A stretch of 64,000 bases of DNA from Promethearchaeota archaeon (GTDB taxonomy: Archaea > Asgardarchaeota > Lokiarchaeia > Sigyniarchaeales > SOKP01): the NCBI GenBank assembly GCA_013375475.1, contig JABXKD010000002.1, positions 32,001 through 96,000 of the forward strand, read 5' to 3'. Positions 17,630 through 45,282 of the stretch are shown here, in pieces (the first letter of the stretch is position 1; each line of letters starts with the position of its first letter). The notes beneath the pieces are model-generated. The model worked only from the letters and a program-made list of their open reading frames with translations. It had not been told where the DNA came from and made no database searches. The position numbers and the translations under genes were made by a program.

Positions 17630-18655
17630 TTAATTATTTTTGATTTCATTCCATCTTGGATATACTCCCCGTTCCATAAACACCTTATTTGTTTTTGCTA
17701 CAATACCCGACTTCGCTTTGTAAATCTTCATTGCATCCAAACTTGCTACGCCAAATCCAATTAATTCTTTCTTGAGAGACATATATACAATCTGTAGTTC
17801 TGGTTTAATTCTTGCATCAATATAACAAACTCCAGCAGCAGCTAAATCAGCACCATGGCATAATGCATCAACGGCAGTGTCTCTCACATAAATTTTTGGC
17901 AAATGGGAAACAATCTTTTCCATAGGTGAGATAATTTTTCTTAAATAGAACTCTTCACCCTCATCCTTGTATAAAGAATATGAGTCTTTTAGATTTTGAA
18001 GGCTTATTAAACTCTCATCTTCTTTAAAATGCCCAACTCTAGTTCTCCTTAGTTCCAACATATGGGCTCCAGAACATAAGGCTTCTCCTATGTCAAAACA
18101 TAACTTTCGAATGTAGGTTCCTGCTTCGCACCCAACTTTAAATAACACATGATTGCTATTAACTTCAAGCACGCTCGCATAATATACTTCCCTTATTCTT
18201 AATTTTCTTACTACTGACGATTTTATGGGAGGAGTCTGATAAATTTTGCCTGTAAATATCTTAAATACTTTCTCTATTTTTTTTGGCATCACAGGTTCGT
18301 GCAAATACATAACTCCAACATATTCTTTACCTGCATTTAATAATGCTGACAAAACCCGAGTAGCTTTGCCAAGAGCGCAAGGCAAGATTCCTGTTACTTT
18401 TGGATCTAATGTTCCTCCGTGCCCAGCGTTATCAATATCTAAAATTTTACGCGCCCATGAGACTACTTCGTGACTCGTTGGACCACTAGGTTTGTCTAAG
18501 TTTATAACTCCATACTTTAATAGATCTTTAATATCTCTATTATTAGGATCGCATCCATAACTTACATTTGCTGTATCTTGAGACTTCACTAACAATTGCT
18601 CTGATTCGTCAGAGGGTAATTTAAATTCTAAATCGGGCATGAAACTTAACTTCAA
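17630..18655 (-). CDS. cbf5: H/ACA RNA-guided pseudouridine synthase Cbf5
   Basis: DKPSGPTSHEV, GHGGTLDP, GTYIRKL, C-terminal PUA. Confidence 0.96.
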   Translation of the reverse strand: MKLSFMPDLEFKLPSDESEQLLVKSQDTANVSYGCDPNNRDIKDLLKYGVINLDKPSGPTSHEVVSWARKILDIDNAGHGGTLDPKVTGILPCALGKATRVLSALLNAGKEYVGVMYLHEPVMPKKIEKVFKIFTGKIYQTPPIKSSVVRKLRIREVYYASVLEVNSNHVLFKVGCEAGTYIRKLCFDIGEALCSGAHMLELRRTRVGHFKEDESLISLQNLKDSYSLYKDEGEEFYLRKIISPMEKIVSHLPKIYVRDTAVDALCHGADLAAAGVCYIDARIKPELQIVYMSLKKELIGFGVASLDAMKIYKAKSGIVAKTNKVFMERGVYPRWNEIKNN

Positions 18656-18777: not shown

Positions 18778-18881
18778 CGGGCCATGTGGGAATTTCGCAT
18801 CAATTCTAAACGATTGAGTGTATCGAACCCACGACCTTCAGGTTAAAAGCCTGCTGCGCTACCTGCCTGCGCTAATGGCCC
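18778..18881 (-). tRNA. tRNA-Lys(UUU) with a 30-nt intron in the T-loop (59/60)
   Basis: GGGCCAT/ATGGCCC acceptor, GCGC D-stem, CT-TTT-AA anticodon loop, GTGGG/CCCAC T-stem enclosing 37 nt instead of 7. Confidence 0.92.
18792..18821 (-). other. Non-canonical BHB tRNA intron
   Basis: Central helix TTCG/CGAA, bulges ATA and ATT, intron helix CA/TG plus TCAAT/ATTGA; removal gives T-loop TTCGATT. Confidence 0.88.
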
Positions 18882-20097: not shown

Positions 20098-20191
20098 GCC
20101 TTTGTGGCTTAGTCGTAGAGCAACTGATTCGTAAAATTAATTGATTCGAATCATCAGTAGATCGGGGGTTCAACTCCCCCCAAAGGCTCCA
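20098..20191 (+). tRNA. tRNA-Thr(CGU) with 19-nt canonical 37/38 intron (20134-20152) and encoded CCA
   Basis: GCCTTTG/CAAAGGC acceptor, ACTGA/TCAGT anticodon stem, BHB (TTCG/CGAA, bulges TAA and TCA), GGGGG-TTCAACT-CCCCC T-arm, U73. Confidence 0.93.
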
Positions 20192-32791: not shown

Positions 32792-34264
32792 TTAACCCTT
32801 TACAACCCCTATTGGAACCAATCTTACGATTTTTTCTACAATTCCAAGATCATGACTTACTTGCACTACTTGATCTATATCTTTATATGCCCCCGGAGCT
32901 TCTTCAGCAATAATTTTAGGAGAAGCAGCTTTTACCATAATTCCTCTATTTTTTAAATCTTCTTTGATTTTCGAACCCCAATATAGTTTTGTAGCCTTAG
33001 ACCTTGACATTACTCGACCAGATCCATGAGCGGTAGATCCAAAAGAAAGATCCATGGCTTTTGGTCTCCCAACGCACAGATAGGAAGCCGATCCCATAGT
33101 ACCTGGGATTAAAGCAGGTTGACCAATAGCTTTATAATCAATAGGCAGATCTGGATGCCCTGGTGGAAACGCTCTAGTCGCCCCTTTTCTGTGAACATTT
33201 AACTTCATTTTTTTTCCGTTTACTTCATGTTCTTCAATCTTTAAAATATTATGGCAAACACCATAAATCAAATTAAAATCCAGACCGTCTATACTCTTTT
33301 TAAAATGCTCTTGGAAAGATTCTCGTAGCCAATGCGTAATTAATTGACGATTATTAAAACCAAAATTTGCCGCACATGCCATGCTTTGTAAATATTTTAC
33401 TGCTTCTGGAGTATTAGCTGGAACACACGCCAATTCTCGATCTGGAACTTTAATTTTATATTTTTTCATTGCCTGCTCGACATTTCGCAAAGAATCTGTG
33501 CATACTTGATGACCAAGAGCTCGAGAGCCAGTATGAACCATGACTGTTACTTGACCTTTATTAAAAATTCCTAGTTTTTTAGCAATACTTTCGTTAAAAA
33601 TTGTATCTACTTTTTGAATTTCAAGAAAATGATTACCACTTCCCAACGAACCTAATTGCTTTATCGCTCTTTGTTTAGCTTTTTGGGATATTAATGTCGA
33701 ATCGGCGTTTTTCAAAAATCCATTTTCTTCACAATGTTCAATGTCTTCTTTAATTGCATAGTCATTTTCAAACGCCCAATTTAAGCCATTATCCAAAACT
33801 TCGTCTAACTCTGAATAATTTATGTTCAATTTTCCCTTACTTCCTAATCCTGATGGAATATTGTGAAAAATAGTGCTTAATAAACTCGGAATCGATTTTT
33901 TTACTTCTTCAAATTGAAGATTTGTTCTTAACAATCGTACACCGCAATTTATATCATAACCTACTCCTCCCGGTGAGATCATGCCTGTCTCGGCATCTGT
34001 TCCAGCAACACCTCCTATACAAAACCCATAACCTTGATGAGCATCAGAAAGAGCGATAGCGTGCTTCTGAATGCCGGGGAGACACGCAACATTACAAATT
34101 TGATCAAGCGTTCTGTCATTTTTAATCTTTTCTAAGATGTAATCGTTAGCATAAATATGCACAGGCACATTCATTTGAAATTTTTCGATTTTACCTTCTA
34201 CTCGCGCCATTAATGCTTTTTGCGGAATTTCATAGATGTTATCGGCAACTTTATTCACATTCAT
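32792..34264 (-). CDS. rtcB: RNA-splicing ligase RtcB
   Basis: DAHQGYG, GYDINCG, GSGNHFLE, HTGSR, HRKGAT, HGSGR. Confidence 0.97.
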   Translation of the reverse strand: MNVNKVADNIYEIPQKALMARVEGKIEKFQMNVPVHIYANDYILEKIKNDRTLDQICNVACLPGIQKHAIALSDAHQGYGFCIGGVAGTDAETGMISPGGVGYDINCGVRLLRTNLQFEEVKKSIPSLLSTIFHNIPSGLGSKGKLNINYSELDEVLDNGLNWAFENDYAIKEDIEHCEENGFLKNADSTLISQKAKQRAIKQLGSLGSGNHFLEIQKVDTIFNESIAKKLGIFNKGQVTVMVHTGSRALGHQVCTDSLRNVEQAMKKYKIKVPDRELACVPANTPEAVKYLQSMACAANFGFNNRQLITHWLRESFQEHFKKSIDGLDFNLIYGVCHNILKIEEHEVNGKKMKLNVHRKGATRAFPPGHPDLPIDYKAIGQPALIPGTMGSASYLCVGRPKAMDLSFGSTAHGSGRVMSRSKATKLYWGSKIKEDLKNRGIMVKAASPKIIAEEAPGAYKDIDQVVQVSHDLGIVEKIVRLVPIGVVKG

Positions 34265-44670: not shown

Positions 44671-45282
44671 TTAAAATTCAAGGAAGCCAGGGTCATCAAA
44701 GATATCTTCAATTTTCTTTTCTTTCTTCATATCGCTTTCGTCGTGTTCTGTAAATAAAGATTCATCGTCAGTTTTAATTCCCTTTTCCAATTCTAGAGAA
44801 TCTAATTGAAGTAATGCGTTTTTCTCTAGCCTTTTATATCCTTCGGCTTTCATTTTCCATTTATTTACTTCATCAATATTTACTTTATCTTCGTCTTCTA
44901 AGGCTTCAGCAGCTTTAGCTTTACAAATGTCAGTTAATATTGAATAAGATAAAGCTAATTCTCCCCATTCGTTCTTTTTTTTTAACTTTTCGACACGTTT
45001 TTCTAATCTTTGAAGTTCTTGATCAGCATAATGAATATCGATGAAATCTCCAAACGCATCAACAGGTTCTGATATCGAATTAACGAGTACTTCCTTTACT
45101 AAACCGCAATGACCGCATTTTACGGTAGCAATTGCGCTCTTTCTAATATTTTCCACTTTTACCGATTTTTCACCGCAATCCATATTGAATGGGATATCCA
45201 TTTAATTATTTGGGCAGGTGAAAATCTTAGGTACTCTCTTAACGCGTTTATAAGTTTGTTGTTTTCTTTTTCTTCTTCCCAT
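44671..45282 (-). CDS. elf1: Transcription elongation factor Elf1 with acidic C-terminal extension; two exons (45282-45208, 45177-44671), 193 aa spliced
   Basis: MGRRKRK...PKIFTCPN joined to CGEKSV...VKCGHCG...EPVDAFGDFID restores the Elf1 basic N-tail and C4 zinc ribbon. Confidence 0.85.
45178..45207 (-). other. Candidate 30-nt BHB-type intron in elf1 mRNA
   Basis: Contains in-frame TAA; bulges ATA and ATT, central CCAA/ATGG, intron hairpin ATTAAATGG/CCATTCAAT, exon helix TTTTCACC(T)GC/GCGGTGAAAA. Confidence 0.8.

Follow-up and report, generated by a model that had tools for sequence, protein, structure and literature searches.

A candidate tRNA-type intron in the transcription elongation factor gene elf1 of a Promethearchaeota archaeon

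The interrupted elf1 gene and its predicted fold

We analyzed a 64,000-nucleotide stretch of DNA from a Promethearchaeota archaeon (Asgard, Loki-type; contig JABXKD010000002.1, positions 32,001 to 96,000 of the forward strand), which we call the window and whose coordinates are used throughout. Its minus strand carries elf1, the gene for the transcription elongation factor Elf1, in two pieces separated by 30 nt, and the arrangement is that of two exons around a putative bulge-helix-bulge (BHB) intron, the type of intron found in archaeal tRNAs. The parts of the locus, including the predicted motif (hBHBh') as defined from the minimum free energy (MFE) fold, from covariation and from a table of pairs across 26 loci, are as follows:

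45282-45208, minus strand: elf1 exon 1, an ATG and 24 further codons, encoding a basic N-terminal tail and the first cysteine of the first CxxC zinc knuckle
45207-45178, minus strand: putative BHB-type intron of 30 nt, with an in-frame TAA at 45204-45202 and an inner hairpin at 45206-45184
45177-44671, minus strand: elf1 exon 2, encoding the second cysteine of the first knuckle, the remaining Elf1 zinc ribbon and a C-terminal extension, up to the stop
45224-45167, minus strand: whole hBHBh' motif, with predicted cuts between 45208 and 45207 and between 45178 and 45177

The start codon lies at 45282-45280 and the 25 codons of exon 1 end with F-T-C-P-N; the insert opens with the codons AAT and TAA in this frame, which is picked up again at 45177 with C-G-E-K and continues over 168 codons until a stop is reached at 44671. 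A preliminary description of this DNA had placed the unannotated ATG, the in-frame TAA and the resumption of the frame within the first zinc knuckle, and all of these coordinates were correct. In a Pfam search, the exon 1 peptide corresponded to positions 1-27 of the Elf1 profile PF05129 and the downstream open reading frame (ORF) to positions 28-76, and since positions 27 and 28 are contiguous over the insert, the 30 nt represent an insertion at one point of an intact domain. At this point, between codons 25 and 26, the insert separates the two cysteines that form the first CxxC zinc knuckle. The proposal that exactly 45207-45178 is removed, joining C-P-N to C-G, is strongly supported by the comparisons with relatives, by the structure and by the genomic context. 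All four cysteines of the Elf1/ELOF1 zinc ribbon are encoded at the locus, and the first CxxC is present only once the insert has been taken out. Exon 2 on its own scored 37.1 bits against PF05129, above the cut-off of 29.8, and in a read-through profile search of the whole genome the elf1 locus scored 47.8 bits with one TAA inside and was the sole Elf1 match over the cut-off.

ORF calling with translation table 11 gives a different picture of the locus, namely an ORF of 26 amino acids and one of 176 amino acids from the ATG at 45201, with the first zinc ligand outside the latter. These calls would suit a gene that is not spliced at all, being either broken and decaying or the source of a 26-residue peptide and a truncated Elf1-like protein that starts within the insert. 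The same reading could draw on public sequence reads: a 217-nt contig (X1 record 2, with 4 differences) spans 45088-45282 and holds the insert unspliced, although the run from which it comes is probably DNA, which leaves the contig silent on splicing. Three public runs labelled metatranscriptomic, all flagged as probably DNA (5-10% of sampled words), yielded 17 short contigs and no joints. Upstream of the ATG, X1 record 2, which comes from a public sediment run, follows the sequence of a second genome, G014, and represents a third strain-level variant. Against an unspliced gene, exon 2 alone is short of one of the four zinc ligands and the genome has no second Elf1 gene; together with the evidence from relatives given below, this makes the absence of splicing highly improbable.

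The unconstrained MFE fold of 45232-45160 was the proposed BHB structure and contained each of its elements, namely two 3-nt bulges, a central helix, and outer and inner helices. The outer, exon-exon helix pairs 45224-45217 with 45174-45167 and, past a bulged T at 45216, adds GC/GC (45215-45214 with 45176-45175). The central helix, formed by 45213-45210 and 45183-45180, has three base pairs (CCA/UGG) and an A.A mismatch, and is bounded by the 5′ bulge AUA (45209-45207) and the 3′ bulge AUU (45179-45177) on opposite strands; the inner hairpin at 45206-45184 has one A.C mismatch. The relaxed BHB with an A-A mismatch that had been claimed for this site is identical to this fold, except that the A.C mismatch of the hairpin was absent from the claim. 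The motif has an energy of -17.2 kcal/mol (z = -2.48), and 3 of 200 shuffled sequences folded equally well.

A scan of the genome on both strands (3.92 Mb, 32.5% G+C) for a loose version of the BHB geometry gave 1,250,345 hits, corresponding to 0.16% of about 7.8e8 pairs of position and length. In 14,925 of the hits, removal of the insert would join two ORFs, each of which closes at it. The elf1 motif ranked first among the 14,925. It alone had a BHB-constrained fold within 1 kcal/mol of the MFE (the difference being 0) and of -8 kcal/mol or lower, while ten candidates lay within 3 kcal/mol of the MFE. A chance origin of the elf1 motif is excluded by this genome-wide null. A group I, group II or spliceosomal intron, which would call for a ribozyme core of hundreds of nucleotides or for GU-AG boundaries and a branch site, was also considered and rejected, as the inserts found at this site are 28-32 nt long, start with A or T and end with AT, AA or AC.

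The remaining candidates of the scan included one, in hisH (C259), whose supposed intron holds the gene's own start, hence two adjacent genes. Another (C255:57445-57529, minus strand, locus L092) spans 85 nt; its central helix is a perfect one of 4 bp, its BHB-constrained fold lies within 1.5 kcal/mol of the MFE, and its removal would join frames of 109 and 328 codons. No Pfam family is common to both flanks, and this may likewise be a case of two adjacent genes. Inspection by eye of a further 22 weak candidates revealed no recognisable split motif.

The insert in related genomes

A homologous insert lies at the identical codon boundary in 26 of 64 distinct elf1 loci, the window included, and is exactly absent from the other 38. 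For exon 2, an ortholog was found in 38 of 41 relatives' genomes. The intron-bearing loci belong to four genera of one Promethearchaeota family (f1), and the presence of the insert in 26 independent assemblies rules out an assembly artefact. The window's own genus comprises 42 genomes, 40 of them with an Elf1 match and 37 with a readable junction; the insert was found in 16 of these 37 and not in the remaining 21. It was also present in all four genomes of genus g16, in one genome of genus g21 (G212), and in each of the five loci fetched from genus g22, four of them new and one a duplicate of L086, whose own genus was not checked. In a profile search of the phylum that covered 400 genomes, 49 genomes of g22 had a match, and 17 of them scored low, as intron-bearing loci do. 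Outside family f1, no interrupted elf1 was found among the ten loci inspected at the nucleotide level, which were five from family f2 and one from each of the five lowest-scoring fetched genomes; the latter comprised two intact genes (G186 and G187), two genes with tandem domains and one gene cut by a contig end (G326).

The inserts are 28 nt (one locus), 30 nt (13), 31 nt (six) or 32 nt (six) long, so that 13 of the 26 are not multiples of three, and the inner sequences of different groups cannot be aligned to each other. Unspliced, the exon 1 frame reaches a stop within about 15 codons in every one of the 26 loci. If both bulges are cut past their second nucleotide, C-P-[N/Q/E] is rejoined to C-G-E-K in all 26, as it stands in the 38 uninterrupted orthologs. 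One comparison is provided by G014, whose protein is 98% identical to that of the window and whose insert differs by two 1-nt deletions. With both deletions, the A.A mismatch gives way to a perfect 4-bp central helix and the frame is lost; the insert is then 28 nt long, so that the frame is kept only through excision.

The lengths also bear on two further ways of joining the frame, translational joining (bypassing, or read-through combined with frameshifting) and removal of the insert from the DNA of some cells of the population. Intron-free alleles do exist as DNA in close relatives. Bypassing, however, needs matching take-off and landing codons, as in T4 gene 60, and in the window the codon before the insert (AAT) does not match the last codon of the insert (GAT). 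Inserts that measure 28, 30, 31 or 32 nt and contain one to three stops would demand species-specific recoding mechanisms. Conservation is seen in an RNA motif, one that a known nuclease recognises, and we consider explanations of this kind scarcely credible.

The conservation of this motif was assessed in an alignment of 16 sequences of the window's genus, in which 91.3% of the cells form standard pairs and four pairs have changed on both sides. Only 0-1 of 500 shuffles matched the observed pairing values, and when the partners were slid by 1-3 columns, 35-55% were paired. Across the 26 loci, the third pair of the central helix is A-U in 19 and G-C in three, and the fourth is A-U in seven, C-G in four and G-C in four, with a purine-purine mismatch in the remainder; the central helix is a perfect 4-bp helix in seven loci. 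The first pair of the inner helix is formed in all 26 (A-U in 13, G-C in 11, U-A in one and G.U in one). A search of Asgard elf1 loci for a same-site insert with compensatory pairing had been proposed in the preliminary description, and the 26 loci with their covarying helices supply it, while the unstructured decay that was named there as speaking against splicing is not the pattern seen, since the BHB geometry is kept in all 26.

These comparisons argue against an unspliced or decaying gene on three further grounds. The geometry is maintained by compensatory changes even though the insert sequence is unalignable; in seven of the 26 loci, no ATG, GTG or TTG that is in frame with exon 2 precedes it; and selection on exon 1 is purifying. 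For the last of these, nine representative intron-bearing loci (36 pairs) gave a pS of 0.63, a pN of 0.074 and a pN/pS ratio of 0.12, which indicates that exon 1 continues to be translated in this frame.

The history of the insert was examined on a gene tree of 56 loci, from which L026, with an exon 2 cut by a contig end, and L020, with a short upstream flank, were left out. The tree requires seven changes of intron state, at least four of them forced by well-supported branches, compared to a mean of 16.6 changes when the intron labels were shuffled, and none of 500 shuffles gave as few as seven. The intron-free L015 sits inside the clade of 32-nt inserts (SH-aLRT 100), to be compared with the intron-bearing L040, and the intron-free L082 is sister to the intron-bearing L086 at distances of 0.02-0.03. 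The putative intron is old, being found in four genera with inner sequences that have diverged past alignment, and by the tree it is one that was gained or lost several times, gains and losses being separable only with a rooted species tree.

Two observations on the protein accompany this survey. The Elf1 of family f1 has a C-terminal extension of about 110 residues, encoded in the window at 44671-45010 on the minus strand, that is coiled and charge-rich with an acidic end, and its N-terminal tail is basic; these tails recall those of eukaryotic Elf1. Elf1 open frames are about 195 amino acids long in families f1 and f2 versus about 80-115 in most other Asgard families. Separately, low Elf1 scores in genus g12 and family f5, for which introns had been considered, go with a single open frame that holds Elf1 domains in tandem: the proteins encoded at L153-L162 (g12) and L175-L182 (f5) are 253-320 residues long and contain the Elf1 zinc-ribbon domain in two or three tandem copies, in place of one.

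tRNA introns, splicing enzymes and a second interrupted gene

Two tRNA genes of the window contain introns, and on them the cutting rule applied to elf1 was checked within the organism itself:

18881-18778, minus strand: tRNA-Lys(UUU), with a 30-nt BHB intron at 18821-18792, T-loop position 59/60, and the bulges ATA and ATT
20098-20191, plus strand: tRNA-Tyr(GUA), with a 17-nt intron at 20135-20151, position 37/38

ARAGORN called the tRNA-Lys gene as intron-less, with 75 nt and a mispaired acceptor stem. Excision by the rule of the second bulge nucleotide gives a perfect cloverleaf with the gene end at 18778, and the same rule applied to tRNA-Tyr gives a normal 77-nt tRNA. As the preliminary description had pointed out, the bulges and the 30-nt length of the elf1 insert equal those of the tRNA-Lys intron. 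Homology between the two past the bulges was looked for by eye and none was seen. The central helix of the tRNA-Tyr intron has three base pairs and a U.U mismatch adjoining the 5′ bulge, the same relaxed position as that of the A.A mismatch in elf1, and the host endonuclease presumably accepts a central-helix mismatch beside the 5′ bulge.

The genome also encodes the enzymes that splicing of this type would require, the ligase and its cofactor lying within the window:

32795-34102, minus strand: RtcB RNA ligase (PF01139, E = 2.4e-168; G000:C211:64795-66102), the sole copy in the genome
32087-32506, plus strand: archease, the RtcB cofactor (PF01951, E = 3.7e-41), the sole copy in the genome

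Two genes of the EndA family are present in the genome, at L047:1453-2055 and L048:1435-2043, both on the minus strand. By what we take to be the catalytic residues, one product, of 200 amino acids, has the Tyr/His/Lys pattern and the other, of 202 amino acids, lacks the His, and the two therefore look like alpha and beta subunits. An endonuclease presumably able to cut relaxed motifs and an RtcB-type ligase are thus both encoded in the genome, the broad motif specificity of the host EndA being deduced from the excerpted text of PMC5829648. RtcB is presumed to be the exon ligase for elf1. The position of RtcB and archease, 11-13 kb from elf1, was given correctly in the preliminary description, but this nearness carries no weight as evidence of a link, because the only copies in the genome have to serve all of the tRNA introns, and it is probably incidental.

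Among the ten scan candidates no further than 3 kcal/mol from the MFE, the fourth lies in uppS, which encodes a cis-prenyltransferase and is outside the window:

C66 (L091) 1620-1591, minus strand: putative BHB-type intron of 30 nt in uppS, in phase 1, inside the D-G-N-R-R-W-A motif

The gene is single-copy in the window's genome, and its exon 2 covers positions 6-219 of the 219 in the profile PF01255. An insert of 30 nt, with an in-frame stop each time, was found in 12 of the 29 readable loci of the genus and is exactly absent in the other 17. Its hairpin shows compensatory changes, and the central helix is weaker than that of elf1, with only two Watson-Crick pairs in eight of the 12 loci. 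The genomes that carry the elf1 insert and those that carry the uppS insert overlap largely. On these comparisons, uppS is validated as a second candidate for a coding-region intron of the BHB type.

With two such genes at hand, a wider reading can be formulated, in which splicing of mRNA by EndA and RtcB is a recurrent and overlooked part of gene expression in Promethearchaeota, at least two genes of this genome (elf1 and uppS) depend on it, the introns spread from the abundant tRNA introns, and splicing affects the amount of Elf1. We put this forward tentatively, as doubtful in its full extent. Were it true, the closest archaeal relatives of eukaryotes would already have tied the maturation of mRNAs to the enzymes of tRNA splicing, in the way still seen in eukaryotes for HAC1/XBP1.

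A further claim had been made in the preliminary description, that splicing gates the elongation factor: splicing would be conditional, and the activity of EndA and RtcB would set the level of Elf1 in the manner of IRE1 and RtcB acting on XBP1. The insert does sit in the only copy of elf1, which encodes no zinc ribbon as long as the insert stays in place; four genera have kept it, and in the window's genome the in-frame ATG inside it could yield an N-terminally truncated product. However, an in-frame start inside the insert is missing in seven of the 26 loci, and an ATG in 11. No observation points to regulation, close sister genomes are precisely intron-free (L015 compared to L040, and L082 compared to L086), and the presence of a second candidate intron in uppS, a housekeeping gene for a lipid carrier, suggests neutral spread. 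The gating claim is unsupported and we regard it as unlikely; the intron-free close relatives fit a dispensable, constitutively spliced intron at least equally well. The accompanying analogy to XBP1 holds for the ligase, RtcB, and fails for the endonuclease, which is IRE1 there and would be EndA, of the TSEN type, here. Splicing of elf1 would most simply be constitutive: the intron-free sister genomes and the insert in a housekeeping gene favour a constitutive, near-neutral element over a dedicated switch.

Proposed splicing of elf1 and known mRNA introns

The explanation that best accounts for these data is that the sole elf1 gene carries a tRNA-type BHB intron and that its mRNA is spliced by the tRNA-splicing enzymes, to which we assign a probability of roughly 85%. 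The elf1 pre-mRNA would fold into the slightly relaxed hBHBh' motif, and a heteromeric (alpha-beta) EndA would cut past the second nucleotide of each 3-nt bulge. RtcB, with archease, would then join the exons and probably circularise the intron. The four-cysteine zinc ribbon of Elf1 would be made from the spliced mRNA only, and translation of the unspliced mRNA would end at the TAA after 26 residues.

Several points weigh against this explanation. The central helix contains a mismatch in 19 of the 26 loci, the window included, which makes the motif relaxed rather than canonical, and the five 32-nt loci with an ACA 5′ bulge have another fold as their unconstrained MFE structure. Many close relatives do without the insert, which speaks against the intron itself being essential. 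The motif lies 75 nt past the start codon, where ribosomes that follow the polymerase would meet it, and splicing must therefore outrun or tolerate translation. Finally, cleavage and ligation of the elf1 mRNA are themselves steps that we infer from the genome.

A BHB intron in the pre-mRNA of crenarchaeal cbf5 was reportedly described by Watanabe and colleagues in 2002 and by Yoshinari and colleagues in 2006. Like the elf1 insert, it is a short, BHB-bounded intron of a coding region in hosts with a hetero-oligomeric EndA, counts as a presumed or demonstrated EndA substrate, has been lost patchily and leads to mis-annotation of the gene by gene callers. The excerpted text of Yokobori et al. 2009 (PMC2738675) describes lineage-specific loss of the cbf5 intron in Crenarchaeota, and the pattern of intron states on our elf1 tree is the one described there. 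The two cases differ in host gene and lineage, and splicing of cbf5 was shown experimentally, whereas we infer that of elf1 and uppS. According to the passages available from Schwarz et al. 2020 (PMC7714728), cbf5 was, as of 2020, the only other BHB intron reported in archaeal mRNA besides the case in the 5′ UTR of HVO_1309. The HVO_1309 mRNA of Haloferax volcanii resembles elf1, as proposed here, in being an EndA substrate within an mRNA, and differs, as the same passages describe it, in that its BHB lies in the 5′ UTR instead of the coding sequence and its host is euryarchaeal.

The non-canonical tRNA introns of archaea with an (alpha-beta)2 EndA share the geometry of the motif and the cutting rule with elf1. 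Their host RNA is not an mRNA, whereas the elf1 exons must keep the frame and the motif competes with ribosomes. According to a 2026 preprint (10.64898/2026.10.13.758758), some lineages of Asgard archaea have acquired tRNA introns heavily and repeatedly; no mRNA intron is mentioned there, and the words mRNA, Elf1 and cbf5 appear zero times. A search of the full-text literature, subscription journals and supplements aside, turned up no BHB intron reported for elf1, for uppS or for any Asgard mRNA, in agreement with the preliminary description, which was aware of none in elf1.

The exon ligase in the splicing of XBP1 in animals is RtcB. Splicing of HAC1/XBP1 resembles that proposed for elf1 in removing a short coding intron independently of the spliceosome and in joining the exons by a tRNA ligase. 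It differs in that IRE1 acts on twin stem-loops and the reaction is stress-regulated, and the two are analogous, not homologous.

Coding-region BHB introns have so far been documented essentially for cbf5 in Crenarchaeota only. If elf1 and uppS are spliced as proposed, splicing of mRNA by the tRNA machinery would extend beyond a crenarchaeal oddity and would include a eukaryote-like elongation factor. It would also explain truncated or missing gene calls in metagenome-assembled genomes of Asgard archaea: the elf1 call is a 176-residue ORF that lacks the first zinc ligand, and the uppS call misses both the start of the gene and the D-G of D-G-N-R-R-W-A. The elf1 mRNA would be a concrete substrate for the Asgard EndA and RtcB and would bear on the origin of splicing of the HAC1/XBP1 type, perhaps also on the tolerance of introns, and the candidate intron is of relevance to specialists in archaeal RNA and in eukaryogenesis. 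The sister genomes with and without the insert form natural pairs for the study of intron gain and loss. In the window, cbf5 itself (18110-18451, minus strand) adjoins the tRNA-Lys gene and is an uninterrupted open frame of 355 amino acids, free of stops.

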